Source: an uncultured bacterium
Lineage (GTDB): Bacteria; Babelota; Babeliae; Babelales; Vermiphilaceae
NCBI GenBank assembly: GCA_963707655.1
Contig: OY970172.1
Coordinates: forward strand, 384,001-448,000
Length of the DNA: 64,000 bases
Direction of reading: 5' to 3'
Of the stretch, positions 16,648 to 53,748 are shown in pieces. A program made the translations under genes and the position numbers. The notes under the pieces were generated by a model that was not told where the DNA came from, did no database searches, and saw only the letters and a program-made list of their open reading frames with translations. The stretch's first letter is position 1. Each line of letters opens with the position of its first letter.

Positions 16648-18543
16648 ATGGCTAAAAAAATAATAGGTATCGACTTGGGTACCACCAACTCGGTGGTTGC
16701 TTTTATGGAAGGCGGAGTCGCCAAAGTGATTCCAAACAAAGAAGGTGCTAACACTACCCCATCCGTTGTGGCATTTACCAAAGATGACAAGCGCCTGGTG
16801 GGTGTTATTGCTAAAAGACAGGCGATAACCAATCCAGAGAACACTATCTTCTCTTCAAAGCGCTTTATTGGCATGGAATATGACCAAATGAAAGAAGAGA
16901 TGAAACATGTTCCCTATAAACTTGCGCGCAAACCCAATGGGGATATTGCTATTGTTGCTCAAGGTAAAGAATACAGCCCTCAAGAAATTGGTGCTGCCAT
17001 TCTTGCACAACTCAAGCAAACAGCTGAAGATTATTTAGGCGAAACAGTTACCGAAGCAGTTATTACCGTTCCTGCATATTTTAACGACTCCCAGCGCCAG
17101 GCAACCAAAGACGCCGGACGCATCGCTGGCCTTGATGTAAAGCGCATCATAAACGAGCCTACCGCTGCTGCCTTGGCATACGGCATGGACAAGAAGAAAA
17201 ATGGCACCTTGGCGGTATTTGACTTTGGTGGCGGTACCTTTGATATCTCTATCCTGGAAATCAATGATGGTGTTATCGAAGTAAAATCAACCAATGGCGA
17301 TACCCATTTGGGCGGTGATGACATCGACCAAAAATTAATCAAATACTTGGCTGATGAATTCCAAAAAGAACACGGCGTTGATTTACGCAAAGACAGCATG
17401 GCATTACAGCGCTTGAAAGAAGCTGCTGAAAAAGCAAAAATAGAACTCTCGAGCCTCTCAGAGACTGAAATCAATCTTCCCTATATCACTGCCGATGCAA
17501 CAGGGCCAAAACACTTAGTAATGAAAATATCACGTGCAAAGCTAGAATCATTGTGCGAAGATATTTTCAAACGCTTGTTGGAGCCATGCAAAAAAGCAAT
17601 GCAAGATGCGCAAATGAGCAAAGAAGCAATTAACGAAGTAATTTTGGTTGGTGGTTCAACCCGTATTCCAAAGGTACAAGCACTCGTTAAAGAATTCTTT
17701 GGTAAAGAACCGAGCAAGTCAGTAAATCCTGATGAAGTGGTTGCCCTTGGCGCTGCAATTCAAGGCGGCGTACTTGCCGGGGACATTACTGATGTATTGC
17801 TTCTTGACGTTACTCCCCTTTCTCTTGGTATTGAGACATTGGGCGGCGTAATGACCAAATTAATTGAACGTAATACAACAATTCCAACACGCAAATCACA
17901 AGTATTCTCAACCGCAGAAGACAATCAAACTGCCGTTGACATTCGTGTGTTCCAAGGTGAACGTGAATTTGCCAAAGACAATAAAATGCTGGGCCAATTC
18001 CGCCTCGAGGGAATTCCCGCAGCACGCCGCGGTATGCCACAAGTTGAAGTTACTTTTGACATTGATGCAAACGGCATTGTGCATGTTTCGGCAAAAGATA
18101 AGGCTACTAATAAAGAGCAAAAGATCACTATCACCAGCAGCAGCGGCTTAAGCAAAGAAGAAGTTGATCGCATGGTGCATGAAGCAAAAGCTCATGAAGC
18201 TGAAGATAAGAAAATGCGTGAAGCGGTTGAAAAACGCAACCATCTTGATGGCTTGGTGTTGAGTATCGAAAAAACTCTCAGCGAGAATAAAGATAAACTT
18301 GCTGAAGAAGATATTAAAACAACAGAAGCAGCTCTTGAAAAAGCAAAACAAGCGCTTAAAGATCATGCCGATAACGCAGATGAGTTGCAAAAAGCAACTG
18401 ACGAGCTTATTCAGGCATCACACAAAGTAGCTGAAATTTTGTATAAGCAAGGCGCAGCACAAGAAGGCGCAAGCACAGAGTCTTCTGAATCAGAAACAAA
18501 AAAAACTGATGAAGAACCGATCGATGCTGAAATTAATGACTAA
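16648..18543 (+). CDS. dnaK: Chaperone DnaK (Hsp70)
   Basis: [46 protein letters not shown]. Confidence 0.99.
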
Positions 18544-18638: not shown

Positions 18639-18683
18639 CTTGCAAAAAAATAAAAACTCATCGATACTGTGGGTGAGTTTTTT
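18639..18683 (+). promoter_or_regulatory. Array element copy 1: TTGCAA-N17-GATACT with the -10 inside an inverted repeat
   Basis: cttgcaaaaaaataaaaactcatc-gatactgtg-ggtgagttttt; recurs before all five paralogs. Confidence 0.75.
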
Positions 18684-18703
18684 GTAACACCTTTTAAAGA
18701 AAG

Positions 18704-19111
18704 ATGCCTATGTTTAAAAAATTATTTTTCTTGCCTCTCGCGGTAATTGCTTCTGTTCACGCAATGGATAATGCAGAAACAAACAATCCTGCACCATGTG
18801 CCGCCAACAAAGATTCACTCACGCAATTAGTAAAAACAGCAACCATAGTTACCATAATCGCGCGCCACGATTCAAACAAAATAGAAAAGTTTGAATTTCC
18901 CATTCAGGACCAAACCACTGCTGGTGATGTGCAGTCTGCTGCGATGTACAAAATAAATGATAAAAAAAGCTTTCTTGGAGATTACCACAATGACGCGATC
19001 TTGGTTACTCCCAATCACAAAAACATGCTTATGGGCCACTCGCTCATAAAAGCAGAAATGACGAAATACAATACATCAACCTTTGACCTCGTCCCAGAAC
19101 ATTGGGTTTGA
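18704..19111 (+). CDS. Small secreted paralog 1, putative RA/ubiquitin-like fold
   Basis: MFKK signal peptide ending in AMD; IVTII...FPIQDQTTAGDV...IKAEMTKYNTSTFDLV shared with the paralogs. Confidence 0.8.
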   Translation: MPMFKKLFFLPLAVIASVHAMDNAETNNPAPCAANKDSLTQLVKTATIVTIIARHDSNKIEKFEFPIQDQTTAGDVQSAAMYKINDKKSFLGDYHNDAILVTPNHKNMLMGHSLIKAEMTKYNTSTFDLVPEHWV

Positions 19112-19125
19112 TCCCTTCCCGCATA

Positions 19126-19170
19126 CTTGCAAAACAATAAAAACTCACCGATAATGTAGGTGAGTTTTTT
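19126..19170 (+). promoter_or_regulatory. Array element copy 2
   Basis: TTGCAA-N17-GATAAT; perfect 11-bp inverted repeat aaaaactcacc-N9-ggtgagttttt. Confidence 0.8.
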
Positions 19171-19200
19171 ATTTAACAGCCCGCCAAAAAAGGAGTAATC

Positions 19201-19740
19201 ATGTTTAAAAAATTACTTTTCTTATCTCTATCACTCGTTGTTGCCGCCACTGCAATGGATATCCCTAATTTGATTGATGAAGATAGTACAACCGCACAGT
19301 TTGCAATTTATGTTGATGGCACTGTAGCCTTTTTGGCGCCACAGCCTGAACGTAAAAACATTTGTGTTTCATTTCCAATCCGTGGCCCGCTCGCTCGTGA
19401 CATACGCTGGTGTCGTCTTTATTGTCTCGTTAAAGATACAACCACGGCGAACCATATTAAACAGTTTATCACAAAGGCAATGCCTACCGCATATTCCAAA
19501 GACCCCCAATATAAAGACCATATAAGCTATAATTCATATACACTTTGCGCTGTTGATTACAAACCTATCCTGTGCGGCCTATTGAGATCACGAGAACTCA
19601 GACCGTTGGATGACCACGAATTAGTTAATCCATACACATATGCAAAAGATACGCACTTTACCCTCGTCCCAAAGAATAACGAATTACTGTTGATCACAGA
19701 ACCTGACAAATCCCCCATCGATACTGAAATCGGAGACTAA
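19201..19740 (+). CDS. Small secreted paralog 2, RA-domain-like, with a DnaK-like C-terminal tail
   Basis: AAGGAG RBS; MFKK...AMD; VKDTTTANHIKQFITK...YTLCAV...ELRPLDDHE...HFTLVPK; ends PIDTEIGD. Confidence 0.82.
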   Translation: MFKKLLFLSLSLVVAATAMDIPNLIDEDSTTAQFAIYVDGTVAFLAPQPERKNICVSFPIRGPLARDIRWCRLYCLVKDTTTANHIKQFITKAMPTAYSKDPQYKDHISYNSYTLCAVDYKPILCGLLRSRELRPLDDHELVNPYTYAKDTHFTLVPKNNELLLITEPDKSPIDTEIGD

Positions 19741-19823
19741 GCAATAATACTCACAACCCACACAAAGAAGAGCTATTCATTCTTTTCTTTTTTTCTACCG
19801 GCTTTTCATATCACTTTCATACT

Positions 19824-19869
19824 CTTGCAAAAATGATTAACACCTACCGATACTATACTATGGGCTTTA
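19824..19869 (+). promoter_or_regulatory. Array element copy 3 (degenerate)
   Basis: TTGCAA-N18-GATACT; palindrome decayed. Confidence 0.55.
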
Positions 19870-19902
19870 TGATTGTTTACCGTCTCAAAAAATGAAAGCG
19901 CA

Positions 19903-20295
19903 ATGTTTAAAAAAATACTTTTCTCATCTACTTTCTTAATTACTCTTCATGCAATGGATAATCCGGTACATAATCAAACTATCACCGTGATATCAAGAAT
20001 ACAGTTGTTGCCGGTCGCGTTCCAGATCCCCGTTAATGATACCACTACCATACAAGAAGTAGACGCAACCATGAAGAAGATGTGCCAATCACAGCTGATC
20101 AAACATCTTGCAGGCGCACCCTGCCAGCCACTCACTCAAGATAGTACTGAATTATGTGCACTCTATAGATCATGGACAACATTAAAGCTATGCAGGCACT
20201 GCTCTGGCCCATTAGAAAAAGCACAAACAATTAAAAGTGTTATAAATCACCTGAATCCCGATTTATTCTATTTTAGCCTGAAGGATGGCATCTGA
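19903..20295 (+). CDS. Small secreted paralog 3
   Basis: MFKK...AMD; ITVI...FQIPVNDTTTIQEV...TELCAL...PLEKAQTIK. Confidence 0.8.
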   Translation: MFKKILFSSTFLITLHAMDNPVHNQTITVISRIQLLPVAFQIPVNDTTTIQEVDATMKKMCQSQLIKHLAGAPCQPLTQDSTELCALYRSWTTLKLCRHCSGPLEKAQTIKSVINHLNPDLFYFSLKDGI

Positions 20296-20347
20296 ACCCC
20301 CAACCCCTAATAAGAAACACGCACCATCAGCAGGCTCTGCGCAAATT

Positions 20348-20392
20348 CTTGCAAAAATAATAAAATTTACTAATAATATGGGTGAGTTTTAT
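20348..20392 (+). promoter_or_regulatory. Array element copy 4
   Basis: TTGCAA-N17-AATAAT; ataaaatttact-N9-ggtgagttttat, with all mismatches G-T compatible. Confidence 0.7.
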
Positions 20393-20418
20393 TTTGTTCG
20401 TCTTAAAAAAGAGTAGGC

Positions 20419-20850
20419 ATGTTTAAAAATTTATTTTTCTTATCTGTATTCAGCATTATCTCTGTGGGCGCTATGGATGATTCGAAAGTAGAACAAGGTA
20501 AAGAAGCACTACCCCAATGGATAAAAGAGGCAACTGTAGTTACCGTAATTTTAGAACGTGGCATTTTCAACGACACCACAATACAGGTCCCTATTTATGA
20601 TGCAACATCCGTGGGCGAGGTGCGCACAAGAGCCATTACTTCACTCAATGAATTAGAATACATCCACAGCGGGAGAAAAACATACCAATTTACTGATGCA
20701 GAATTGGTGGCTCGCTCCTCTAGCATTTATTACACAAAAAGAACTTTGATGGGCCAGTCTTCCATCAAAAACATGATGAAAAAATACAACACAGCAACAT
20801 TTGAACTCATCCAGAGACAAAACAAAGCATCTGAACAGTGCGAAAAATAA
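20419..20850 (+). CDS. Small secreted paralog 4
   Basis: MFKN...AMD; LPQWIKEATVVTVIL...VPIYDATSVGEV...IKNMMKKYNTATFELI. Confidence 0.82.
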   Translation: MFKNLFFLSVFSIISVGAMDDSKVEQGKEALPQWIKEATVVTVILERGIFNDTTIQVPIYDATSVGEVRTRAITSLNELEYIHSGRKTYQFTDAELVARSSSIYYTKRTLMGQSSIKNMMKKYNTATFELIQRQNKASEQCEK

Positions 20851-20871
20851 CCGCTCTCTTAATCTCACGCG

Positions 20872-21465
20872 CTATTTCCAGATGAGCGGCGCAATGTCGT
20901 CAACCGTTACGTTGTTATCCAAGCTCAACTCGCTATTGGTTACCCCTTTCCTGCCATTGTCCGGGCCAGTTTGCGGACGAACGCCGTCTTTATCAACGGT
21001 GATATACACGGTTTTGCCTGCAGTGAATTTATTATAAAAATCCGGCACTGGTGCCTTTTGTTCAAACCAAGTGCCGCCACCCTTTGACCTACAATTATTT
21101 TCAAACTCTTCTCTCAGAATTTTTTCTGAAACTTTGCTCAAAGGATCAATTGTCCATATAGCTAGATAAAAATCTCCTTGCAAATGAAAACCTCTTATCT
21201 GCCGGGATCCGCTATCCAACAGCGTAAGTAGGCGAACGTATGAGTTAACTTTCAGAGGCAGCCGACTACTCTTATCCAGACTAGCAAAAAGGCCTCTTTC
21301 ATAAGCCATGACCCATACAGGGCCACCAGTCTTATTGAGAACTTCTGCTGCGACATCTTCTTCCGTATGAATTTTTCTCTGCGCATCTCCATCAGCGCTC
21401 TGAGCCTGAAATGCTATGATTAATAGCATGCCGCGCACAATATTTTTTTCCCAATGCAGCTTCAT
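20872..21465 (-). CDS. Hypothetical secreted protein interrupting the array
   Basis: 197-aa ORF with AGGGGGGA RBS and signal-like N-terminus (AQSA); unrelated to the flanking paralogs. Confidence 0.7.
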   Translation of the reverse strand: MKLHWEKNIVRGMLLIIAFQAQSADGDAQRKIHTEEDVAAEVLNKTGGPVWVMAYERGLFASLDKSSRLPLKVNSYVRLLTLLDSGSRQIRGFHLQGDFYLAIWTIDPLSKVSEKILREEFENNCRSKGGGTWFEQKAPVPDFYNKFTAGKTVYITVDKDGVRPQTGPDNGRKGVTNSELSLDNNVTVDDIAPLIWK

Positions 21466-21641
21466 AGTACTTCCCCCCTTGCGCTCAATGCGTTATTACC
21501 TTTTCGATGGAGCAATGCTTGCCAATAATTTTTAAAAATGCCCATTTTCATAACTCAGTGTAGCAGCACAAAAATTCAAATTGCAATGAACCCATCGCGG
21601 CGAGTCCCCAATAATGGGTAAAGTATCCTTTACCGTCAGAC

Positions 21642-21687
21642 CTTGCAAAAATAGTAAAAGTCACTTACATTATCGGTAAGTTTTTTT
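21642..21687 (+). promoter_or_regulatory. Array element copy 5
   Basis: TTGCAA-N17-TACATT; aaaagtcact-N9-ggtaagtttt. Confidence 0.65.
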
Positions 21688-21720
21688 GATCGCCTACTAT
21701 ACTATTGGATCTATTCGAAA

Positions 21721-22122
21721 ATGATTAAAAATATGATGCTTTTTTCCCTCTCTCTTGCTGCTTCTGCCCATGCAATGACGGATAGCATAGATCTGCCCCA
21801 ATCTATAAAAGATGCATCTACGGTGACGGTAATTTTACAAAAACATTGGTTCTCGAGCGACACCGAAACGCAGATTGCCATCACCGACACAACCACCGTT
21901 GCACACGTATGCCATGCAGGAAAAAATCAATTAAATGCTCTGCGAACACAAAAAACAGATGATCAGCGTCGCCTTACCTACACACTTACTGCGCAATTCT
22001 ACTGCAATCCCACTGATGACATTCTTTCTGAATCACAAGAATTGCCAAAAAACCGTTTCATCAAAGAAATGATGAAAAAATATGACACAGATATTTTTGT
22101 CCTCTGCGAAAATCAAAGTTAA
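21721..22122 (+). CDS. Small secreted paralog 5
   Basis: Signal ending in AHAMTD; LPQSIKDASTVTVIL...IAITDTTTVAHV...YTLTA...IKEMMKKYDTDIFVL. Confidence 0.82.
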   Translation: MIKNMMLFSLSLAASAHAMTDSIDLPQSIKDASTVTVILQKHWFSSDTETQIAITDTTTVAHVCHAGKNQLNALRTQKTDDQRRLTYTLTAQFYCNPTDDILSESQELPKNRFIKEMMKKYDTDIFVLCENQS

Positions 22123-22140: not shown

Positions 22141-22170
22141 AAAAGGGAGCCGATAAAAGCTCCCTTCTTT
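22141..22170. terminator. Bidirectional intrinsic terminator
   Basis: aagggagc-loop-gctccctt between convergent genes. Confidence 0.7.
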
Positions 22171-22189: not shown

Positions 22190-22423
22190 TTAGTGCTTAC
22201 AATCTTTGCTACATGCCATGAAGAGCATGATCAAGCTAAAGACACCGGCAACGCCGATACAATAATAAATAGGATCAACAATGCTCATTGAAGTCATTGA
22301 ACCAAGTTTTTCAACAAGATTATGACCCAGCGGCTTTAATCCCCAGTTAATTGCCCCTAATGAAGCAAGCAACCAAGCAACCATAGCAACAATTTTCATG
22401 GCGCCATTGTGGTGATGAAACAT
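22190..22423 (-). CDS. DUF378-family small membrane protein
   Basis: LGAINWGL...NLV...IYYCIGVAG signature; ATG 22423 with AAGGAG RBS. Confidence 0.85.
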   Translation of the reverse strand: MFHHHNGAMKIVAMVAWLLASLGAINWGLKPLGHNLVEKLGSMTSMSIVDPIYYCIGVAGVFSLIMLFMACSKDCKH

Positions 22424-22693
22424 AACTATTCTCCTTCGTGAATAATTTGTAAAAAGATGAGACCTACTCTTCTTCTCATAACATAAAAAAAGAGTGGATT
22501 CAATGGTTCTGTGAGAATGTGCAGGGAGCATGCATGAAAAACTTATAAATAAGGCATTTTAATGATTCGTGCCAACTGTTTGCTCCCCGGTTCATTGACG
22601 CCCTATACATTTAATAGTCCAAAGTTGAAAAAAAGGTTCTTTTCCAGCACACTTATAGATACATAATCAATGTTGAAACAATAGGAATATCAA

Positions 22694-23806
22694 ATGACCA
22701 TTCAAGCCGGCCTGGTAGGATTGCCCAATGTGGGCAAATCAAGTTTATTTAATGCTCTAACCAAATCAAGTGTCCCTGCTGAAAATTACCCTTTCTGCAC
22801 GATTGACCCACACATGGCCATCACCTATGTACCCGATCAGCGCCTGGATGACATGCAAAGAATATACGGTTCAAAAAAGCATATTCCCGCTACGGTTAAT
22901 TTTGTTGATATCGCCGGCCTGGTCAAAGGAGCAGCTTCTGGTCAGGGTCTGGGCAACCAGTTCTTGAGCCACATTCGTGAAGTGGACCTCATTTTACACG
23001 TATTGCGCTGCTTTGAAGATAGCAACATTCTCCACTCAGGCGACACGATTGACCCCATCTCCGATTATGAGATTATTATTGCCGAACTGATGCTCAAAGA
23101 TCTTGAATCGGTAGAAAAACGATTACAAAAGATGGAAAAATTGATCAAAACAAGCGCAAGCAAGCCGGCAGAAAAAAAAGAGCTGGAAGCAGAAGAAATA
23201 ATATTAAAAAAACTTATGCCCGCTTTAAATGCTGCTGATCTCAAGGCGGTACACACGCTCACTAAAAATGCGCCAAGCACCCTGATCCCTCTATTGTCGG
23301 CAAAAAACTTTCTTGTTATAGCCAATGTTGCCGAAGACGAGCTTGAAAATGATGGCTACAAGAACAATAAGCATTATCAAAAATTAGTGCAGCACTTTGG
23401 CGCCGATCGCGTAATTGCCGTATGCGCAAAGGTTGAATATGAACTCTCACAATTAAATCCTGAAGAAGCACAAGAGATGATGGGATTGCTCGGTATACAA
23501 GAACGCAGCCTTGATCGCATCATTCAAGAAACCTATAATCATCTGGGCCTTATCACCTTTTTTACCTGCGGTCCGCAAGAAGCTCATGCCTGGCCAATAA
23601 AAAAGGGTATTACTATTCGTAAAGCGGCAGGTGAAATCCATTCCGATCTTGAGCGTGGCTTTATCTGCGCAGAAATCTTTAACTGCAACGATCTTATCAA
23701 AGCAGGCAGCGAGGCAAAGCTCAAAGACACCGGCAAGATGCGCACCGAGGGCCAAGATTATGTGGTACAAGATGGTGACGTGGTTCATATTAAATTTAAT
23801 GTATGA
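22694..23806 (+). CDS. ychF: Ribosome-binding ATPase YchF
   Basis: GLPNVGKS, NYPFCTIDP, DIAGLVKGA, IHSDLERGFI, C-terminal KFNV. Confidence 0.98.
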   Translation: MTIQAGLVGLPNVGKSSLFNALTKSSVPAENYPFCTIDPHMAITYVPDQRLDDMQRIYGSKKHIPATVNFVDIAGLVKGAASGQGLGNQFLSHIREVDLILHVLRCFEDSNILHSGDTIDPISDYEIIIAELMLKDLESVEKRLQKMEKLIKTSASKPAEKKELEAEEIILKKLMPALNAADLKAVHTLTKNAPSTLIPLLSAKNFLVIANVAEDELENDGYKNNKHYQKLVQHFGADRVIAVCAKVEYELSQLNPEEAQEMMGLLGIQERSLDRIIQETYNHLGLITFFTCGPQEAHAWPIKKGITIRKAAGEIHSDLERGFICAEIFNCNDLIKAGSEAKLKDTGKMRTEGQDYVVQDGDVVHIKFNV

Positions 23807-24492: not shown

Positions 24493-24753
24493 TTACTTAA
24501 TTTTATAAGAAGAAGCATCCTCCACTTGGCCTTCACGATCATGTTCTTTTTCTTCTTGGCGCTCAAGCTCTGCCTTACGATCTTTTTCTCCCTGGCTTTC
24601 ACGACGCCTTTCACTATCTATCTTTTCTTGTGCTTCTTGTCTGTCGGTGTAACCACCACGATTTGTTCCTGCACCGTTGTTACTATAGGCATACACTGGG
24701 GAAGCGCTGAGCAAAAATGCAATACCAAATACTATCGGTTTACTCATCTTCAT
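24493..24753 (-). CDS. Small secreted highly charged protein
   Basis: Signal peptide (SPVYA) followed by an E/R/K-rich helix. Confidence 0.75.
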   Translation of the reverse strand: MKMSKPIVFGIAFLLSASPVYAYSNNGAGTNRGGYTDRQEAQEKIDSERRRESQGEKDRKAELERQEEKEHDREGQVEDASSYKIK

Positions 24754-24851
24754 AATTATTCCCCTCTCTCATTTTTATTAACACCCATTTGGCCATAAAA
24801 AAACTCCCCGCCTTTCAAAGGCCGAGAATGAATGAGCCAACTCATTGTAAT

Positions 24852-24876
24852 AAAAACGGGGGCTTTTAAGCCCCCG
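24852..24876 (-). terminator. Intrinsic terminator
   Basis: cgggggctt/aagcccccg stem with a T-run on the minus strand. Confidence 0.75.
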
Positions 24877-24881
24877 CATAG

Positions 24882-25283
24882 TTACTTAGAATTAATGGTA
24901 TAGCCACCATCAAGTATTCTTGCATTGGTGTTAGCTGGATAACCTACTTGTGCCGGAGTACCTGTCTGGTATCCTGTAGGCTGTTGATATCCGGTAGGGG
25001 CATGAAGATGACCGTTACCGGCCTGATAACCTACTTGTGCTTGGGTACCATTACCAGCTTGATAACCTACTTGGGCTTGGCTACCTCGCACAGGAAGAGC
25101 ATGCATTTCTCCCTCATGGTAAGGCTGGCTACGCATTTCTCCCTCATAGTAAGGCTGGCTATGCATTTCGCCTTCATGGTAAGGAAGAGTTCGTACTCTG
25201 CCCTCATCTAAACCTACTGCTGCCAATATAGGCGCAGACATTAATAAAGCTACCGCTATTAAAGCTTTTTTATTCATCTTCAT
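24882..25283 (-). CDS. Small secreted repeat protein
   Basis: Signal peptide; PY(H/Y)EGEM x3 (30-bp unit 25101-25184) and QAQVGYQAGNG x2 (36-bp unit 25011-25082); AAGGAG RBS. Confidence 0.8.
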   Translation of the reverse strand: MKMNKKALIAVALLMSAPILAAVGLDEGRVRTLPYHEGEMHSQPYYEGEMRSQPYHEGEMHALPVRGSQAQVGYQAGNGTQAQVGYQAGNGHLHAPTGYQQPTGYQTGTPAQVGYPANTNARILDGGYTINSK

Positions 25284-30491: not shown

Positions 30492-32333
30492 CTAAAAAGA
30501 TAATCCTGATTTCATCCAAACACCACATTGCGAAATAGCAGCGCTTTTGCCGCACATGTCGCGACCGGCCAGCTCAACAAAACCACCAAAGCCCACATAG
30601 GGACTCCAGAAGCATGTTTGTGGCCATGTGTAGCTGCCATGAATAAAAAATTTGTGCGTGAGTGCCTGTTTTTTTTCTTTATCCAAATCAAGATCATTAT
30701 CAGATAAAACTATTGGCTCCAGCGAAATGCGCTGTTGATTGGCTGCAGCAGCAACGAGGCCGGGGGCATAATTAATATAATCAGTAGTATTGGCGATTAC
30801 ATTTGAGGTGACGCCAAACTGCGGATTATCAACGCCGGGATTTTGCATCTGGTTATTTGCGCCGGTGCCAACAAAGCTCGTGCCTATGGGCGTATTGGTT
30901 CCGGCATGAATTGTGGCAGTGCTTTCTGTTGCAGAAAGCGGAATAATGGCGTCTGCACCAATTACTGCATTAGTGGCCCCAAAGCCATAGGTGTACGCGT
31001 CCCCCTTAAGCGCCCATGTACCACTTGCCAGCGCTGTTGAACCAACCATTTTTATTTTATCTTTTGTTTTTATCCAAAAATCATAGCCAAAATCAATTGC
31101 CACACTTTGATGATGCGTGGTGTAGGTAAGCATTGCAGCAATATCTGCCTGGACATCATTACTCACCTTCAAGCAGGCGCTGGTGAGATTGGCAAGGGGT
31201 GTGTATACGTTTTGAAATTGCGCGTTTGGTTGCGTGCTGCTGGCCGTGGGGCCACCACTTGTGTCGCTCCCATTGCCAAATAAGAATGGGCCAACGGGCG
31301 GATTAATTTTTTGCGCGAGCATATATTTGCTTGAGCAGCTATTTTTTATATCCAAGGTACGCTGCTGCCCCGCGGAAAACATGTGGGTAACAATCGCATC
31401 AAGAGAAAAAATCCATGAATTATAATCATCGCACCCATGCCAAAATGCGTAGCGTGAGGTAAAGTAGCCGCCCAGCTCCCAATGATGGCCATTGCCCACG
31501 ATTGGTTGAAAAATAAATTCATCCTTTACGCGTGAGCCGGTTGGCGCAACAACAACTGCTCCCAGACCAACATGATAATCAGCTCGGTTCAAAAAATTCC
31601 AACCGAAGATGGTGTAAATATCGCTTAATTGTGTGGTATTTATAGTTTGGTTTGATGGCAAAGAAAATTTGCTTTTGTCCAACGGCTCAAAGACTACACC
31701 ATCGGCAACATCCAGCGTTGGCACTTTTTCAAAGCCAATGAATTGTCTAAAATTGGTAAGCAGCGCGCTACGCATAACTTCTACCGGCGCAAAATAACCG
31801 GCGGCATAATTATTGGTGCCGGGATTTATTATAGTTTCAATGCAATGCAAGGCGCTGTGAGAATGTACTATGGGCACCTGAATCCATAAAAATAGATTTG
31901 GGCAGAGACAATCAAAGCCAATATAAAAATTGAGATCAAATATAAAAGAGCTCAATTTTGGTTTTATAGAAACAGTGCTTTGATAATCGGTAGGCAAACC
32001 AAAATAATCGGCGAGCCAATCATGCGGACTACGCGCGCCACTTTGGCTACCAGAAATACCAATTGTGCTTGTTGAGCCACACGTGTTATCCAAACAATCG
32101 GCACCAAAAAGAGAATTCGCGATTGCCTGGTTACGCAACGAGTGGTCGTACTGAGGGATAATGGCCAATGTGCCATATTTACTTTCATCTCGCGCAAGAT
32201 GTATCTGGTTGGTCCAGCCGACCATAAAGCGCGGCAGGTCAAGAGATTGCGAGCGCGTGTTGACAAGAGACAAGAGTGTATGCGATATCGTTAAGCAGCT
32301 GGCGACAAGAAGAATAATGTTTTTTCTATTCAT
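30492..32333 (-). CDS. Secreted Cys-rich putative outer-membrane protein, paralog 1 (most divergent)
   Basis: Signal peptide; family motifs RSQS, LADYFGLPTDYQSTV, GNGHHWELG, ALKGDA; ends SGLSF. Confidence 0.85.
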   Translation of the reverse strand: MNRKNIILLVASCLTISHTLLSLVNTRSQSLDLPRFMVGWTNQIHLARDESKYGTLAIIPQYDHSLRNQAIANSLFGADCLDNTCGSTSTIGISGSQSGARSPHDWLADYFGLPTDYQSTVSIKPKLSSFIFDLNFYIGFDCLCPNLFLWIQVPIVHSHSALHCIETIINPGTNNYAAGYFAPVEVMRSALLTNFRQFIGFEKVPTLDVADGVVFEPLDKSKFSLPSNQTINTTQLSDIYTIFGWNFLNRADYHVGLGAVVVAPTGSRVKDEFIFQPIVGNGHHWELGGYFTSRYAFWHGCDDYNSWIFSLDAIVTHMFSAGQQRTLDIKNSCSSKYMLAQKINPPVGPFLFGNGSDTSGGPTASSTQPNAQFQNVYTPLANLTSACLKVSNDVQADIAAMLTYTTHHQSVAIDFGYDFWIKTKDKIKMVGSTALASGTWALKGDAYTYGFGATNAVIGADAIIPLSATESTATIHAGTNTPIGTSFVGTGANNQMQNPGVDNPQFGVTSNVIANTTDYINYAPGLVAAAANQQRISLEPIVLSDNDLDLDKEKKQALTHKFFIHGSYTWPQTCFWSPYVGFGGFVELAGRDMCGKSAAISQCGVWMKSGLSF

Positions 32334-32391
32334 TTTTCATATTCCTTTCTTTTTTCCAACAGCTTAACACTCGCGTAGTGATGAGCACAAC

Positions 32392-32424
32392 AAAAAAGGC
32401 CCGGAAGAATTCCGAGCCCTTTTT
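32392..32424 (-). terminator. Intrinsic terminator after paralog 2
   Basis: ggcccggaa/ttccgagcc stem flanked by A/T runs. Confidence 0.7.
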
Positions 32425-32449
32425 GCTGTGTTCTATTACTATGTATTAC

Positions 32450-34438
32450 TTAGAAAGAGAAACCGCCTTTAAGCCAAATACCCCATTCAGATATATTGGT
32501 GCGGATCGCTTTATTGTCGGCGCAAACGAAGCTGCCACAGCCGCTATTTGAATTAATGGTTGAGCATCCTGAAGTATTTGAACACGGCGCTATATTGCAG
32601 CATTCTTTATTGCTTGCAAACTCAGCCTTGCCACCAATACCAAGGTAAGGAATGTAACATTCGCAATCTTCCCATGTATAACTTACATGAGTGAATACTT
32701 TGTTTGATAATCCCTTAGCCCGCGCGCCAACAAGATCAATATCATTATCTGCCAAGAAGATTGGCTGTATTGATGTCTCTGTTTGGTTCGCCACGGTAGC
32801 ACCGGCGGTTACGTTTACTAATGGATTATTGGCGGTAAATGGGGCCGCTGCGTCACCATAAGCGTAAAGCGCCGAATCAATGCCAGTATTGACTGCTGGG
32901 AACGGGGTAAATGTTCCTACTGGATAGTTACTGCCGGAGCAGATGGTTGCATTGTTGTTGGTTGCAGATAAAGCTATTGGATCATAAGTATTTACCGGAT
33001 CAAAGCCATACACATACGCATCACCTTTGAGCGCATAAGTCGTGTTGCCTGAGAACAATGAAGTGCTGGTGCATGATTTGAACTTTTCAGCGCTGGTCAT
33101 CCAGAAGTTGTACCCAAGATCCCACGTAAAATTGCAATGGGTATAGTTAAACATAGCAGTCAGGTCAACCTGAATATCTTGTTTCACTTTTACATTCTGC
33201 GCTGCAATATTGGCAACAGGCGTGAATATGTTGTCAAACTGATAGTTTGCCGCGAAGTATCCTCCCGTAGGAACAGTTGCCGGGAATGGTGTCCCTGCTG
33301 GCGCTGGATTTCCTTCCAAGTGATCTACCACGGTGCTTGTCAAATTTTCAGCAAGCATATATTTGCTGTTGTCCCCACGAGCACACAGATCAAACACACG
33401 GAACTGGCATGCTGCAAATAAATGAGTGAGATCAACATCTAAATAAAAGCCGAGGCTTTTTTCATAGTCGCAATCTGTCCAGAATGTGTAGTGAGAGGTA
33501 AATTTGCCACCAAATTCCCAGTGATGCCCATTGCCCACCATTGGTTGAAAGAGCAACCGGTCATTCACTCTGTTGCCCGTTGGCGCTGCAACGAGAAGGC
33601 CCAAGCCAACATGGTAGTCTTCATCTTCCGCAAAGTTCCAGCCCAATGCAAAACGTATGTCTGAAAGGCGCGTTGTATGTGATCCGCTATTACATGATTT
33701 TGAACAATTACCATTGCTGGTACCGGTGATTACCTTGCCGGAAGGAATTTTTGCATTTGCCAATGGTTGGAACGTAACCCCACCGTTTAAGATAGGAACA
33801 TTGCCTTGCAAGTATGATACAAAGCTGGTGTTCAAACTGGTATACGGTACTACAGCAGGACTGAAATAACCTGCCGGATAGTTACCGGCAGCGCTACCGG
33901 GGCTTGCTGCTACTTCATTCATGCGCAATTTCCATTTTGCATACACAACCGGCGCATGAATGCGGAACCACAATCCTTCAAGATAATCATCAAGGCCAAG
34001 GAACAAGTCGAAATCAACCAAAAAGTTTTGAATTTCCGGTTTAACATATACGGTTGATTGGTAATCAAGAGGCAAGCCAAAATAATCAGCTAACAAGTCA
34101 CCTGCCTGGCGATTGGGAGATTGACTGCCCGAAACTCTAAACGAAGCCCCATTGTTATTGTTGCAATTATTATTGATAGTCGTAGCAGCATTGTTAATGG
34201 CACTGCCAAATAATGAACGCGCTATCTGGCGCCCATGAAAAGATTGTGTGTATTCTGGGGTGACGGCGAATGATCCATAAAAGCAGCCGACATCATATAA
34301 GTTAACATGATCGGTCCATCCAGCCAACTCACGTGCGGTATCAACACTTTGCGAACGGATTCTAACATCGGCTGCAGTAGCACATCCCATGACACTCAGC
34401 AGCATGCCAAGACCTATATATGAAAACAGTTGCTTCAT
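32450..34438 (-). CDS. Secreted Cys-rich putative OMP, paralog 2
   Basis: Same motif set; ends WGIWLKGGFSF; AAGGAG 8 nt before ATG 34438. Confidence 0.9.
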   Translation of the reverse strand: MKQLFSYIGLGMLLSVMGCATAADVRIRSQSVDTARELAGWTDHVNLYDVGCFYGSFAVTPEYTQSFHGRQIARSLFGSAINNAATTINNNCNNNNGASFRVSGSQSPNRQAGDLLADYFGLPLDYQSTVYVKPEIQNFLVDFDLFLGLDDYLEGLWFRIHAPVVYAKWKLRMNEVAASPGSAAGNYPAGYFSPAVVPYTSLNTSFVSYLQGNVPILNGGVTFQPLANAKIPSGKVITGTSNGNCSKSCNSGSHTTRLSDIRFALGWNFAEDEDYHVGLGLLVAAPTGNRVNDRLLFQPMVGNGHHWEFGGKFTSHYTFWTDCDYEKSLGFYLDVDLTHLFAACQFRVFDLCARGDNSKYMLAENLTSTVVDHLEGNPAPAGTPFPATVPTGGYFAANYQFDNIFTPVANIAAQNVKVKQDIQVDLTAMFNYTHCNFTWDLGYNFWMTSAEKFKSCTSTSLFSGNTTYALKGDAYVYGFDPVNTYDPIALSATNNNATICSGSNYPVGTFTPFPAVNTGIDSALYAYGDAAAPFTANNPLVNVTAGATVANQTETSIQPIFLADNDIDLVGARAKGLSNKVFTHVSYTWEDCECYIPYLGIGGKAEFASNKECCNIAPCSNTSGCSTINSNSGCGSFVCADNKAIRTNISEWGIWLKGGFSF

Positions 34439-34581
34439 AATAACCACTCCTTAAATGTATTTTGGCGTTCATTAACACAAAAAATGCTAGCATAATCGCG
34501 TGATGCTGCGCAATGCATAGCTCATTTTCTCTTACAAAAATAAGCCATGCATTGCATTTTTTACCTGTTATTCAACAGAGA

Positions 34582-36525
34582 TTAATTAAAAGAAACCCCT
34601 CCTTTGAGCCAAATACCCCATTCGGAGATATTGGTTTTTCTGCAGCCGCTGTCACCACAAGAGCTGCACGAAGAGTTATTTACACCGCAACCGGCACTGT
34701 TTGCACACGGCATAACATCATCACCGCAGCCTTTTTTATTGCTGACAAATTCAGCTTTGCCGCCAATACCCAGGTAAGGCACGTAGCATTCACCGTCTTC
34801 CCATGTGTAGCTTATATGGGTAAATATTTTGTTAGATTGTCCCTGTGCACGTGCACCCGCGTAATCAATATTCTCATTGGCCAGGAACACTGATTGTATT
34901 GAAGTGCTGGTTTGAAGAGAACCTGCAGTTGCGGGGGCTTCGTTATATAATAAAGACAGAAAAGTGGAGAATGCCAATTGCGCATTGTCTATATTTGCGT
35001 TCGCTGTTGGGAAAGGGGTAAAAGTTCCTACCGGATAGTTGGTTCCCGAACAGATAGTGGCCATACTTTCTGTTGCACCAAGAGCAACAAGAGTAATAGG
35101 GGTACCACCATCAAATCCGTAGACCGCCGCATCCCCTTTGAGTGCATAGGTGTGATTGCCGCGGAACAATGGCACATTGTTGCCACATGGGGTAATTCGT
35201 TCACAGCTGGTCATCCAGAAATTGTAACCAAGATCCCAGGCAAAACCGCAGTGTGTATAGTTTAACATTGCCGTAAGATCAACTTGAATATCTTGGCTCA
35301 CTTTTACATTTTGTGCCGCAATGTTTGCAACCGGGGTAAATATGCCATCGAATTGATATGTCGACGCAACCACTGGCGCAGGATCTCCACCAAAAAGATT
35401 TCCCGCCGACGTTGTCAATGATTCGGCAAGCATATATTTACTATTGTCACCGGCGCTGCATAGATCGAACACACGGAACTGTTTTGCTTTCAACAAGGTG
35501 GTTACATCTGCATCAACATAGATGCCCCAGCTCTTGTCGTAATCGCAGCTTCTCCAGAATGTGTAGTGTGAAGTAAACTTCGCACCCAACTCCCAGTGAT
35601 GCCCATTACCAACTATTGGTTGGAAAAGATAGGTGTCATTCACTTTATTACCGGTCGGCGCTGCAACAAGAAGACCTACGCCAATATGGTAATCTTCATC
35701 TTGCCAAAAGTTCCAGCCCAAAGCGGCACGGATATCGGAAAGTTTGGTTGTATGTGCGCCGTTATTGCATGATTTTTCACAACAGCCATTTGCAGCGACA
35801 TCAGTATTTATGGTACCACCACATAATTTACCATATTTCAACGGTGCAAACGTAACGCCACCGTTTAACGTTGGCACATTGCCTTGCAGATATGAAACGA
35901 AGCTGGTATTTAAGTCAGTATTTAAAACTATATCAGGAGCAAAATAACCTCCCGGATAGCTACCGCCAGCAGAAGTTCCCGCATCTGCTATTTCTTCATT
36001 CATGCATAATTTCCATTTTGCATAGACAACCGGTGCATGAATCCGGAACCAGAGTCCACACAGCCAATGATCCAAGCCGACAAAATAATCAAAATCAACC
36101 AAGAAGTTTTGGATTTTTGGTTTTACGTATACGGTCGATTGAAAATCAAGGGGCAAACCAAAATAGTCGGCCAGCAAATCACCGGCCATGCGATTTGTTG
36201 ATCGACTGCCCGAAACTCTAAATGAAGCACCGTTCTCATCATTGTTGCAACTGTCGTTACAATCATTATTTGAAGTGTTTATAATAGCACTGCCAAATAA
36301 TGAACGCGCTATCTGGCGACCATTAAAAGATTGTGTATATTCAGGGGTAATCGCAAATGTTCCATACATGCAATTCATATCAAACAAATTCACGTGATTG
36401 GTCCAGCCCGCCAACTCACGTGCCGTATCAACACTTTGCGAACGGATTCTTATATCGGCTGCAGTAGTGCACCCCATGACACTCAGCAGCACGCCAAGAC
36501 CTATATATGAAAACAGTTGCTTCAT
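34582..36525 (-). CDS. Secreted Cys-rich putative OMP, paralog 3 (chimeric)
   Basis: Signal peptide like paralog 2, body like paralog 4; ends GGVSFN. Confidence 0.9.
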   Translation of the reverse strand: MKQLFSYIGLGVLLSVMGCTTAADIRIRSQSVDTARELAGWTNHVNLFDMNCMYGTFAITPEYTQSFNGRQIARSLFGSAIINTSNNDCNDSCNNDENGASFRVSGSRSTNRMAGDLLADYFGLPLDFQSTVYVKPKIQNFLVDFDYFVGLDHWLCGLWFRIHAPVVYAKWKLCMNEEIADAGTSAGGSYPGGYFAPDIVLNTDLNTSFVSYLQGNVPTLNGGVTFAPLKYGKLCGGTINTDVAANGCCEKSCNNGAHTTKLSDIRAALGWNFWQDEDYHIGVGLLVAAPTGNKVNDTYLFQPIVGNGHHWELGAKFTSHYTFWRSCDYDKSWGIYVDADVTTLLKAKQFRVFDLCSAGDNSKYMLAESLTTSAGNLFGGDPAPVVASTYQFDGIFTPVANIAAQNVKVSQDIQVDLTAMLNYTHCGFAWDLGYNFWMTSCERITPCGNNVPLFRGNHTYALKGDAAVYGFDGGTPITLVALGATESMATICSGTNYPVGTFTPFPTANANIDNAQLAFSTFLSLLYNEAPATAGSLQTSTSIQSVFLANENIDYAGARAQGQSNKIFTHISYTWEDGECYVPYLGIGGKAEFVSNKKGCGDDVMPCANSAGCGVNNSSCSSCGDSGCRKTNISEWGIWLKGGVSFN

Positions 36526-36668
36526 AATAACCACTCCTTAAATTTGTTTCGGCATTCATTAACACAAAAAATGCTAACACAACCATTCGACAATACACAA
36601 TGCACCACTTGTCTCCCATTACAGAAACAAGTGGTGCATTGCATTTTTTACCTGTTATTTAACAGAGA

Positions 36669-38612
36669 TTAATTAAAGGAAACCCCTCCTTTGAGCCAGA
36701 TACCCCACTCGGAGATATTGGTTTTTCTGCAGCCGCTGTCACCACAAGAACTGCAGGAAGAGTTATTTAGACTACAGCCTGCACTGTTTGCACACGGCAT
36801 AACATCGTCATCGCCGCAGCCTTTTTTATTGTTGGCAAATTCAGCTTTGCCGCCCACGCCAAAGTATGGCACGTAACATTCACGGTCTTCCCATGTGTAG
36901 CTTATATGGGTAAATATTTTGTTAGACAGACCCTGTGCGCGCGCACCCGCGTAATCGATATTGTCATTGGCCAAGAATACTGATTGTATTGAAGTGCTGG
37001 TTTGAACAGCGCCGCCGGGTACGGTGAATAACTCTGGCCCGGTAGGTGAAAAGTCCCCCAAAGCCGCGTTGTCTATATTTGTATTCGCTGTTGGGAAAGG
37101 GGTAAAAGTTCCTACCGGATAGTTGGTGCCTGAACAAATAGTGGCCATGCTTTCAGTTGCACCAAGAGCAACCGGAACAGTGACCCCAAATCCATAGACC
37201 GCTGCATCACCTTTAAGTGCATAAACATGATTGCCTTGGAACAATGGCACATTATTACCGCATGGGGTAATTCTTTCACAGCTGGTCATCCAGAAATTGT
37301 AACCGAAATCCCAAGCAAAGCCGCAGTTGGTGTAATTTAACATCGCCGTAAGATCAACTTGAATATCTTGACTCACTTTTACCTGTTGTGCCGCAATGTT
37401 TGCAACCGGGGTAAATATGCCATCGAATTGATATGTTGAGGCTACGGGGCCCGCACCTGTTGCACCATAAAGGTCCACTGATGGAGTTTTCAATGATTCG
37501 GCAAGCATATATTTGCTGTTGTCGCCGGCGCTGCATAGATCAAACACGCGGAACTGTTTTGCTTTCAACAAAGTGGTTACATCTGCATCAACATAGATGC
37601 CCCAGCTCTTGTCGTAATCGCAGCTTCTCCAGAATGTGTAGTGTGAAGTAAACTTCGCACCCAACTCCCAGTGATGACCGTTACCAACGAATGGTTGGAA
37701 AAGATAGGTGTCATTCACTTTATTGCCGGTTGGCGCTGCAACGAGAAGACCCACGCCAATATGGTAATCTTCATCTTGCCAAAAGTTCCAGCCCAAGGCG
37801 GCACGAATATCAGAAAGTTTGGTTGTATGTGCGCCGTTATTGCACGATTTTTCACAGCAGCCATTTGAAGCGACATCAGTATTTATGGTACCGCCACACA
37901 ATTTGCCATATTTTAATGGCTCAAACGTAACGCCACCGTTTAACGTTGGCACATTGCCTTGCAGATATGAAACGAAGCTAGTGTTTAAGTCCGTATTTGC
38001 CACTGCAGCAGGAGCAAAATAACCGGCCGGATAGCTACCACCAAGAGTAGTGCCCGCGTCTGCTATTTCTTCATTCAAGCATAATTTCCATTTTGCATAG
38101 ACAACCGGCGCATGAATCCGGAACCAGAGTCCGCACAGCCATTGATCAAGGCCAATAAAGAAATCAAAATCAACCAAGAAGTTTTGGATTTTTGGTTTTA
38201 CGTATACGGTTGATTGGTAATCAAGCGGCAAACCAAAATAGTCGGCCAGCAAATCACCGGCTTGACGATTGAGGTTTTGACTACCTGATATTCTAAATGA
38301 AGCACCGTTCTTATCATTGTTGCAGTTATCGTTACAATCATTATTTGAAGTGTTGATAATGGCGCTGCCAAATAATGAACGCGCTATCTGGCGACCATTA
38401 AAAGATTGTGTATATTCAGGGGTAATCGCAAATGTTCCATACATGCAATTCATTTCAAATAAATTCACCTGATTGCTCCAGCCCGCCAACTCACGTGCCG
38501 TATCAACACTTTGCGAGCGTATTCTTATATCGGTGGTTGTGGCTGTGCCAACAAACCCGACTGTGCTGCAAAGAGCAATAAGACTCAGATATTTTTTTAG
38601 CGCTTGTTTCAT
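36669..38612 (-). CDS. Secreted Cys-rich putative OMP, paralog 4
   Basis: Same motif set; AAGGAG RBS. Confidence 0.9.
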   Translation of the reverse strand: MKQALKKYLSLIALCSTVGFVGTATTTDIRIRSQSVDTARELAGWSNQVNLFEMNCMYGTFAITPEYTQSFNGRQIARSLFGSAIINTSNNDCNDNCNNDKNGASFRISGSQNLNRQAGDLLADYFGLPLDYQSTVYVKPKIQNFLVDFDFFIGLDQWLCGLWFRIHAPVVYAKWKLCLNEEIADAGTTLGGSYPAGYFAPAAVANTDLNTSFVSYLQGNVPTLNGGVTFEPLKYGKLCGGTINTDVASNGCCEKSCNNGAHTTKLSDIRAALGWNFWQDEDYHIGVGLLVAAPTGNKVNDTYLFQPFVGNGHHWELGAKFTSHYTFWRSCDYDKSWGIYVDADVTTLLKAKQFRVFDLCSAGDNSKYMLAESLKTPSVDLYGATGAGPVASTYQFDGIFTPVANIAAQQVKVSQDIQVDLTAMLNYTNCGFAWDFGYNFWMTSCERITPCGNNVPLFQGNHVYALKGDAAVYGFGVTVPVALGATESMATICSGTNYPVGTFTPFPTANTNIDNAALGDFSPTGPELFTVPGGAVQTSTSIQSVFLANDNIDYAGARAQGLSNKIFTHISYTWEDRECYVPYFGVGGKAEFANNKKGCGDDDVMPCANSAGCSLNNSSCSSCGDSGCRKTNISEWGIWLKGGVSFN

Positions 38613-38787
38613 AATAGCTACTCCTTGTTATCGTTTTTTATTATGCATTATTATATATGCTTTCATTCTCCATCATGTGCGATTTAATTATTTTTTTATC
38701 AGTAAATCTCCTTTTATTATCGGCACAGCTCATCACTTTGATTGATATAAAAAGCATCCTACCATAGCAACAATTAAAGAAACAACA

Positions 38788-38817
38788 AAAAAAAGACCCG
38801 GATATTTTTCCGGGTCC
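38788..38817 (-). terminator. Intrinsic terminator after paralog 5
   Basis: gacccgga/tccgggtc stem with a T-run on the minus strand. Confidence 0.8.
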
Positions 38818-38861
38818 TCTACATTGGTTCTGTCATGCAATTATCGATGCGCTCATTATTA

Positions 38862-40886: not shown

Positions 40887-40923
40887 GATAATTGTTCCTC
40901 ATTGAATGAATAGTATTCGTTAA

Positions 40924-40952
40924 TAAAAAAGGCCCGGGAAAATTCCCGGGCC
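40924..40952 (-). terminator. Intrinsic terminator after paralog 6
   Basis: ggcccgggaa/ttcccgggcc 10-bp stem with a T7 run on the minus strand. Confidence 0.85.
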
Positions 40953-41000
40953 CTTAGTACTAGTTTTTGTTTGTGCAACAGGTTGATGCACTAACAAATA

Positions 41001-42998: not shown

Positions 42999-43602
42999 AA
43001 TAACCACTCCTTAGAATTGTTTTGCATTACAGTGTACGATTGCCTCCACTTTTTCTACTTTGCCACAACGCTTTATCGGCGAATGGCGAAGTATTTTTTC
43101 GGAAAACTCGCGCTCAGCAACAGCTTTTTAATCTGCGCAGGTGCGAATATGTATTGTTTTGCTGATCTGTTTTCTCCTTTCGTTTACTTTAATCATTACT
43201 CTATACAGTTTCATTGTCTGATGTCTAGGGTTGAGTGATAAAATGCATTGCCACTCTATTAATGAATAGGCGTATTAATGCTGGAATAGGCGAGTATTGT
43301 TTAGGAGAATTGGCGTATAAGGTTGAATAGAATAGATGTTTGGATTGATGCTTCATTGTTCAACTCCTTAAAACAATCTTGGTTTGCTACTTCACACAAT
43401 AACAAAATCTTACACATTGATAGGATGAAGTCAACAAGTTGTTCTTACCGCTCAATATGCCGATGTAGCATTTACTTTTTATCGACTAATCTGCGCAGTG
43501 TAATTATTATAATATGATGATATTTTTATTGTAAAGTAAAATTACAAAGATGATTGATGTAGCCGTTGTTAACAAGATTTTTTTATTATAAAAGAGGGAT
43601 CC

Positions 43603-52800: not shown

Positions 52801-53748
52801 ACTGCTATTGGTTACAATGCACTTACCGCTAATAGTACTGGTAGCGCCAATACCGCTGTTGGCTACAATGCGCTTGCATCTAACACGACCGGCGTGAGCA
52901 ATTCAGCTATCGGTGAGGCGGCACTCTTTGCGAACATGACTGGCGGATTCAATACCGCCCTTGGCGTAAGTGCCCTGTCTGCAAACGTATCCGGTTCTCA
53001 AAATACCGCCCTTGGCGTAAGTGCCCTGTCTGCAAACCCATCCGGTTCTAATAACACTGGAGTAGGTTATTGGGCGGGCCAAAGTCTTACGACAGGCAGT
53101 AACAATATTTTTGTAGGCGATTTATCCGGCGGCGCAATGACAAACGGCAGCGGAAACGTGATAATTGGTGTCAATTCAGTACCGGGCACCGGTGCCACAG
53201 CGTGGAACAATAATATATATCTGGGAAATGGTATCACTAATACCGCAGACTCGAACTACATAAGAATAGGAACTCCATCGATTACTTACAATGGATGCTT
53301 CATTCAGGGCATATATGGCGTGGCGGCCACCGGAGCCGGCGTTACGGTCACTAGCAGCGGACAACTGGGCGGCATTATTTCATCCCGCCGCTATAAAGAT
53401 GACATTGTATCACTCAGTCCCGTAACAGACAAGCTTGCACAGCTCAATCCGGTCAGCTTTGCCTATAAAACTGATGACAATAAAACTAAGAACTATGGGC
53501 TCATTGCAGAAGAAGTAGAAGAAATTGATCGCTCATTGGTCATGTACAACGATAACGGCTCCCCTGAGACCGTCTACTACCAGTTCCTGCCACCATTGCT
53601 CCTCAAGGGTTGGCAAGAATTACATGCTCATATGCAGGAGCAAGATGCAGTAATCAAAAAACAAGAAGGTGACATTAACAGGCTGACACAAGAATCTGAA
53701 AACCAACTTGCGATGATTAATGAGTTGTATGCAAAAATAATTGGATAA
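46889..53748 (+). CDS. Giant secreted fibre protein 1 (about 2285 aa when rejoined): tail-fibre-like repeats, trimeric head repeats and C-terminal peptidase S74 chaperone; split by indels near 50007, 50068-50087 and 51444
   Basis: ORFs 46889-50041, 50208-51488 and 51403-53748 join colinearly with paralog 2; NGGTG and GQVLTSNG..PSW modules; N.A.G..AL..N repeats; SSRRYKDDI...PV.F.YK...GLIAEEV S74 signature. Confidence 0.85.

Follow-up and report, generated by a model that had tools for sequence, protein, structure and literature searches.

We analyzed a stretch of 64,000 nucleotides from the genome of an uncultured bacterium of the Vermiphilaceae (contig OY970172.1, positions 384,001 to 448,000 of the forward strand; hereafter the window), in which a slot between dnaK and ychF carries an array of five genes, p1 to p5, encoding small proteins with Sec-type leaders. 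The balance of evidence tips slightly toward a reading in which these are exported, nonconjugatable ubiquitin-fold proteins that act on a protist host, probably as decoys or adaptors aimed at that host. The parts of this reading differ in strength: the ubiquitin fold and homology of the proteins are very probable, their export past the inner membrane is nearly as probable, and host-directed binding is an even call. The bacterium belongs to the order Babeliales of Candidatus Babelota (= Dependentiae, TM6), and its genome comprises 1.09 Mb in one contig.

All five open reading frames (ORFs) were confirmed on the + strand in the ORF list of the window: p1 (18704 to 19111; 135 amino acids [aa]), p2 (19201 to 19740; 179 aa), p3 (19903 to 20295; 130 aa from its MFKK ATG, the ORF list starting at a TTG at 19873), p4 (20419 to 20850; 143 aa), and p5 (21721 to 22122; 133 aa). 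Each N terminus reads M(F/I)K(K/N), the MFKK start of p1 lying at 18710, and continues with an uncharged hydrophobic run of ~12 residues and a small-x-small site. The leaders end VHA|MD, ATA|MD, LHA|MD, VGA|MD, and AHA|MT (leader coding to 18763, 19254, 19953, 20472, and 21774, respectively). With a basic n-region, an h-region, and small residues at −3/−1, p1 to p5 have the features of Sec (signal peptidase I) substrates, and their translations contain no lipobox Cys after the leader. The leaders were read from translations and passed a crude rule, and the cleavage sites are inferred rather than computed by a trained predictor.

Each gene is preceded on the + strand by a cassette made up, in this order, of a TTGCAA box, a hairpin whose loop contains a −10-like hexamer, and a T-run. 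Strong hairpins stand before p1 (18639 to 18684; −13.3 kcal/mol, z −4.5), p2 (19126 to 19171; z −4.05, with a promoter-like TTGCAA-17-GATAAT at 19127 to 19155), and p4 (20348 to 20393; z −3.0, with TTGCAA-17-AATAAT at 20349 to 20377). Before p3 (19824 to 19869; fold no better than that of shuffles, z −0.54) and p5 (21642 to 21687; z −0.34) the box is retained and the hairpin has decayed. With up to 2 mismatches, CTTGCAAAAANNNTAAAA occurs at five sites in the 64 kb, each of them a + strand site that lies 71 to 79 nucleotides (nt) 5′ of an array ATG; shuffled sequences averaged 0.94 sites, and 0 of 100 shuffles reached five. The whole genome holds 25 loose matches to CTTGCAAAAANNNTAAAA; apart from the 5 array copies, none combines the hairpin with a position ahead of a gene of this kind, and we therefore rejected the cassette as a genome regulon motif. 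It is also absent from the same-genus genome G001. From its sequence, we regard the cassette as a putative combined terminator and promoter that would insulate each gene.

Since the cassette is common to all five genes, they form one tandem-duplication family. Cassette and leader DNA is 50 to 71% identical between units, and mature-coding DNA is 42 to 55% identical, versus 43% in shuffles. The assignment of p2 to the array rests on this DNA evidence, that is, on its cassette and on its leader-coding DNA, which is 65 to 71% identical to that of the other array leaders. The end of p2 (...SPIDTEIGD, the stop, and 30 nt beyond) copies the corresponding dnaK segment (...EPIDAEIND with its stop and flank): the dnaK tail at 18503 to 18575 matches the p2 tail at 19700 to 19772 at 52 of 73 nt, against a shuffled maximum of 42, so that the last ~13 codons of p2 are a dnaK-tail copy and give p2 a DnaK-like C terminus. 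Judged by its sequence, this repeat is the scar of a segmental duplication.

At the protein level, blastp linked p1 to p4 (E 8e-22) and p4 to p5 (E 8e-17), and the within-array matches of p2 and p3 came mainly from the leader. A core profile built from leaderless p1, p4, and p5 with four metagenomic relatives (p2 and p3 excluded) was searched against 7,363 genome ORFs, and in it mature p3 scored E 1e-9 (p1, one of the sequences in the profile, scored E 1.3e-35). The best partner of mature p3 was P0009 (E 6.5e-11), and it also matched the ubiquitin-motif relatives G133 (3e-7) and G137 (9e-7); p5 matched G137 at E 1e-5, and the best partner of p4 was the metagenomic protein P0007 (E 7e-21). Because p3 and p4 are nearer to outside partners than to their array sisters, the paralogues must be old and under maintenance.

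The fold was assessed on predicted structures. An AlphaFold2 model of mature p4 from a 13-sequence alignment (predicted local distance difference test [pLDDT] score, 79.9; predicted template modeling [pTM] score, 0.72) runs short helix, b1, b2, 20-residue helix, b3, short helix, b5. In this model the protein adopts the beta-grasp superfold, in which a mixed sheet clasps the helix in the order b1-b2-helix-b3-b4-(short helix)-b5, bearing out a call made by eye in an earlier note on this DNA. Foldseek against the PDB returned 10 matches at an E of ≤1e-3, namely, Ring1B RAWUL (6 chains), PLC-epsilon RA, Caldiarchaeum ubiquitin (2 chains), and PI3K-gamma; ranked directly after these were the Rgl2 Ras-binding domain (RBD), human ubiquitin, and the ubiquitin-like (UBL) domain of BAG6.

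Sequence profiles link the family to ubiquitin through its relatives. A profile of 14 relatives (A6, which omits two fused forms, G137 and G042, and two same-genus slot genes) matched mono-ubiquitin chains in the PDB at an E of ~2e-6, with 368 sequences at an E of ≤1, and the Pfam ubiquitin profile matched 11 of 28 family members at an E of ≤0.01 (best, 1.1e-6). When the five mature window proteins (alignment A2) were compared with A6 by hhalign, the probability was 97.7% (E 1.3e-12 over 97 columns). A chain of profiles from window proteins to relatives to ubiquitin is thus in place. Motifs of the relatives include TTV.DVK..L...EGIPV..QSL and tails such as FLLVLSLRP, and TTV..VK and IK..M..YNT..F.L are conserved across four GTDB families. 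Like eukaryotic ubiquitin and UBL proteins (PF00240), the family has the beta-grasp topology, and its relatives retain T..VK...D.EGIP..QQ.L and a YN...F.L..L.LR-like tail; unlike them, the array has no Gly-Gly, a longer first helix, an insert between strands 3 and 4, and an additional N-terminal helix (L..W[VI]). The contact for ubiquitin-binding domains is the hydrophobic patch of ubiquitin formed by Leu8, Ile44, His68, and Val70; the aligned residue after QQ.L varies across relatives. A Protein Atlas search gave weak leads (top score, 0.87), among them a Rad60-SLD cluster at 0.84.

None of p1 to p5 ends in Gly-Gly, their C termini being ...PEHWV, ...TEIGD, ...LKDGI, ...EQCEK, and ...CENQS, and the relatives end ...SLRPQNNQN, ...LHLRRPAQTGN, and similar. 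With the C-terminal Gly-Gly lost, the proteins cannot be conjugated. Bacterial Ubl conjugation systems (E1-E2-Ubl, e.g., PDB 8tyz) and ThiS/MoaD are cytosolic, Gly ended, and encoded beside E1/E2-like genes; the array proteins differ from them in having a leader, no Gly-Gly, and no E1/E2-like neighbors.

Several results weigh against the reading of the array as host-directed ubiquitin-fold proteins. Pfam PF00240 (gathering score, 25.4 bits) matched 0 of the 5 window proteins even at an E of ≤10 and had no match across the own genome, and because there is no direct Pfam ubiquitin match in array or genome, the link to ubiquitin is transitive; Pfam and NCBIfam searches with p1 to p5 gave only noise (E > 0.05). 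A profile including the window proteins had no significant match in the PDB, where a cupredoxin ranked highest (4hcf, E 0.075). We rejected a cupredoxin identity, since this match covers the first two strands only and both the structure model and the fold searches point to a beta-grasp. The mature part of p2 scored E 0.15 against the core profile (the best nonmember score), had no blastp match at an E of ≤1e-3 among the 27 other family members, and reached hhalign probabilities of only 18% and 13%, with colinear alignments; its family-alignment-guided model has the same element order at low confidence (pLDDT, 65.8). Four of the five proteins are, from their sequences, demonstrably homologous, and the mature domain of p2 lacks such support. 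The earlier note had described five paralogs with MFKK-type leaders ending AM(D/T); the ORFs, the leaders, the DNA-level family, and the motifs quoted from the translations all held, and for the protein homology of p2 our comparisons gave no significant match. Leader-like N termini occur on 412 of 989 ORFs of the own genome (crude gene set, crude rule), and the leader is therefore not a specific effector mark; a Sec leader shows delivery to the periplasm only. Among 54 ORFs neighboring 16 loci of relatives there was no shared ubiquitin-system partner, and the listed sequencing runs that hold array pieces include no RNA runs, so no expression data were found. Finally, among the ubiquitin homologues that bacteria secrete, BfUbb alone is well studied, and its target, according to the available text, is bacterial and periplasmic, not in a host (PMC11467351).

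The points about leader and precedent feed the main rival explanation, that the proteins act outside the host cytosol, either in the periplasm or envelope of the bacterium that makes them or as BfUbb-like weapons that get into competing bacteria and inhibit a target in their periplasm. Arrays of variable paralogues are typical of interbacterial toxins, and the leader guarantees delivery to the periplasm only. The closest precedent is indeed BfUbb, and work on bacterial proteins of this kind has so far centered on Bacteroides fragilis. In the accessible parts of the reports, BfUbb and BoUbb (PMC3352274, PMC5705921, PMC11467351) combine a type I signal peptide, a ubiquitin fold, and no C-terminal Gly-Gly, and BfUbb kills relatives through a periplasmic peptidyl-prolyl isomerase (PPIase) (PMC11467351, PMC3352274); the array has the same combination, its fold being predicted. 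BfUbb is exported and acts noncovalently, and by analogy the array proteins may do so as well. Yet BfUbb is described there as 63% identical to human ubiquitin and as the single-copy product of a free-living gut commensal, with the periplasmic PPIase as its target, whereas the array proteins are unrecognizable to Pfam ubiquitin, ~35 residues longer, and encoded by five genes in a host-dependent Babeliales-type bacterium; close identity to eukaryotic ubiquitin of the BfUbb kind is not seen in p1 to p5, which have no direct ubiquitin match. A core envelope role is at odds with a family found in 15 of 261 genomes and variable in copy number within a genus, a host-dependent lifestyle offers fewer opportunities for free interbacterial warfare, and no immunity-like or transporter partner is conserved beside the family genes. 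On these grounds we consider action outside the host cytosol unlikely.

The specific proposal of the earlier note was instead that the proteins are RA-type modules that may engage Ras/Rap-GTP of the host, as mimics of small-GTPase effectors. RA (Pfam PF00788) had no match among p1 to p5 at an E of ≤10 or among the 28 family members at an E of ≤0.01. RA fold matches lie within 1 Z unit of FERM-F1, RAWUL, PB1-like, and UBL modules, so that RA cannot be singled out by fold search, and the relatives bear ubiquitin's own motifs and match ubiquitin profiles. RA, RBD, FERM-F1, and RAWUL show no sequence-profile relation to the array and are cytosolic domains of large eukaryotic proteins, in contrast to the stand-alone exported array proteins. 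Many Ras-binding surfaces are basic, and the mature isoelectric points of p1 to p5 (5.2 to 7.8) indicate no general basic character. For p2, singled out earlier as the most RA-like, the best Foldseek match of its low-confidence model was indeed PLC-epsilon RA (E 2.9e-3, with none at an E of ≤1e-3), and Pfam RA found nothing. The earlier interpretation is thus partly supported, its beta-grasp fold standing; we do not favor Ras binding and judge the RA-type reading to be very improbable.

That the array is decaying duplicated DNA with functionless ORFs is the least credible explanation: extreme divergence, the lack of a detectable protein homologue for p2, and the shortened P0002, which is 94% identical to p4 with an altered C terminus, would fit it, but the five frames are intact, all with leaders and upstream cassettes, family motifs are conserved over four GTDB families, and p3 and p4 have closer partners in other organisms than in the array, as expected of old, maintained paralogues.

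The distribution of the family is patchy. A survey across Dependentiae, which the earlier note had called for, placed it in 15 of 261 phylum genomes including the own genome (G000); with G000 left aside, it occurs in 9/79, 3/41, 1/10, and 1/5 genomes of four GTDB families. The corresponding alignment (A5) omits 2 of the 20 places outside the own genome, partial matches in G208 and G019 that by eye are unrelated, and a match in G032 was dropped because it lies within a membrane-protein ORF of 350 aa, on the strand opposite to it, and is interrupted by a stop codon. Among 1.84 billion representative proteins, 11 match the array family at an E of ≤1e-3, the five included. A word-index homologue search with p4 retrieved p4 itself and one 94% identical partial protein, and the 28-sequence alignment retrieved 6 proteins. 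Matches of p4 (~35 to 74 residues) to two Acidobacteriaceae loci and one high-GC metagenome contig were judged spurious, the last because it is a chance shared word within a 268-aa ORF. Family members with public names are all annotated as hypothetical proteins, and we found no account of such proteins in the Dependentiae/TM6/Babelota literature, a search that left most subscription journals uncovered and so is not proof. Small contigs identical to array pieces occur in four peat, soil, and wetland sequencing runs from three studies, and one of these runs may represent the sample from which the genome came.

Comparison within the genus bears out the rapid diversification proposed in the earlier note. 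The slot of G001 holds two leader-bearing genes only, barely alignable to p1 to p5 (best, 37% over 43 aa), so copy number in the slot varies within the genus from five to two. The flanking genes, dnaK (16648 to 18543, + strand) and ychF (22694 to 23806, + strand; TIGR00092, E 4e-125), are 89.9% identical over 386 aa and 91.1% identical over 158 aa, respectively, to their G001 counterparts. By sequence comparison, then, the mature domains diverge far faster than DnaK and YchF, and within the array units the fast divergence is confined to these domains.

Across the phylum, PF00240 matches 23 of the 261 genomes, 14 of them above the gathering score, and 0 of 14 control genomes. Near-canonical ubiquitin cores lie behind Sec-like leaders elsewhere in the phylum (L042 at 1372 to 2379 on the + strand and L065, from contig 9 of genome G239; also L043, L044, and L045). 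G239 has three tandem ORFs of 323 to 373 aa; two score 96 to 97 bits on Pfam ubiquitin and the third 19 bits (E 1e-3), and the strongest, which matches PDB ubiquitin at an E of ~5e-28, reads ...STLHLVLR without LRGG and continues with a ~220-aa extension. In one genus (g17), GNAT acetyltransferases recur beside the ubiquitin-like gene (L019, L022, L024, L036, and L039), one of them with a leader. A neighbor in L024 matches RNase_T (Pfam E 5e-6), the corresponding ORF in L019 has no Pfam match, and an ankyrin ORF lies near the ubiquitin-like gene in L019. These g17 loci are interrelated and count as a single observation.

The leader itself belongs to a wider export signal. In the own genome, [AGSC]M[DENQST] directly follows the hydrophobic core in 83 of 412 leader-like ORFs; the corresponding counts are 6 of 412 for a control window and 18 of 577 for nonleader ORFs, and AM[DE] stands at the leader junction 41 times in leader-like ORFs and 0 times in the control. 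Because the junction is so common among leader-like ORFs, the MFKK...AMD leader is a genome-wide export signal and no mark of the array family. The genome also has 3 ATP/ADP translocase ORFs, 2 secretins, and 32 ankyrin matches in ~20 ORFs; ~16 of these 20 ankyrin ORFs carry leaders by eye, of the same type as in the array, six of them ending (S/P/A)MD. The relatives' leaders end x-M-(D/E/Q/N), and Met at the first mature position recurs in family members of other genera. Three readings of the [AGSC]-M-[DENQST] junction are conceivable: a tag for sorting, the former start codon of a gene that gained a leader, or an internal start. As for the leader as a whole, in which Met is invariant at +1, it may serve as a dedicated tag or be a scar left by a cassette-like mechanism that places leaders on acquired eukaryotic genes.

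The slot contains two further genes. Between p4 and p5 lies an interleaved ORF on the − strand (20872 to 21465; 197 aa) that the earlier note had not mentioned, has its own leader, is unrelated to the array, and has no family in Pfam or NCBIfam; it has a paralogue in the own genome (G000:804125-804538; 43% identity, E 4e-20), and its C-terminal part is weakly matched in two further genera. Downstream of p5, a terminator-like hairpin (22143 to 22166, + strand; 8-bp stem, 5 GC pairs) belongs to a class whose count only modestly exceeds that in shuffles (7 versus 3.7; standard deviation, 1.7), and it is followed by a DUF378 membrane protein gene (22190 to 22531, − strand; PF04070, E 6.6e-7), the one element of the slot whose DNA resembles that of G001. 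Elsewhere in the window, two small leader-bearing ORFs at 24493 to 25283 (− strand) lack a Pfam match and have low-complexity mature parts with HEGEMHSQPY repeats and an E/R/K-rich tail. Six consecutive ORFs of 613 to 674 aa at 30492 to 43007 (− strand) have no Pfam match at an E of ≤1e-5 and may be a second paralogue array. G+C rises from ~0.42 to ~0.50 at 48000 to 64000, where an ORF (51403 to 53748) carries a C-terminal Peptidase_S74 (endosialidase chaperone) domain, as phage tail fibers do. RNA families had no match anywhere in the 64 kb.

We propose that the five copies arose by duplication of a unit in which a promoter/terminator-like cassette precedes a Sec leader and a ~110-residue ubiquitin-fold domain. 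The domain would be of ubiquitin-family descent, diverged so far that Pfam recognition was lost and, with its C-terminal Gly-Gly gone, nonconjugatable. The proteins would cross the inner membrane via Sec, and their release from the cell would follow through a type II-like secretin pathway or by way of vesicles. In the available text of the reports on Babela massiliensis and Chromulinavorax destructans (PMC4378268, PMC6561590), type II is the sole secretion system reported; for Chromulinavorax, outer-membrane vesicles are mentioned, and signal peptides are given for 44% of coding sequences (PMC6561590). Those bacteria resemble ours in placing Sec leaders on eukaryote-type interaction domains (ankyrin, F-box, UCH, Ulp1-like), and the lists in the accessible text name ubiquitin-system enzymes and adaptors, not ubiquitin-fold proteins themselves. 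Inside the protist host, the array proteins would serve as noncovalent ubiquitin/UBL look-alikes, decoys or adaptors for ubiquitin-fold readers, and diversification of the mature domain would mirror an arms race or differing targets. A broader scenario, which we regard as rather doubtful, is that Babelota repeatedly captured host ubiquitin behind a common ...A|M-D/E leader, yielding nonconjugatable mimics, from ~80%-identical cores to this array, that are injected as diversifying decoys for the readers of ubiquitin in the host.

The array thus combines two known kinds of protein, the secreted ubiquitin homologues of bacteria and the leader-tagged eukaryote-like proteins of intracellular bacteria. 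It is a clean case of duplication in which a regulatory and leader module is conserved and the mature domain is hypervariable, and leader-tagged ubiquitin-family proteins occur across a phylum of obligate protist parasites (23 of 261 genomes for PF00240 and 15 of 261 for the divergent family). If the proteins reach the host, they would represent a new effector class whose members mimic the signal, ubiquitin, rather than the enzymes that write or erase it, and the five natural variants in the array would offer a handle for finding its host readers.

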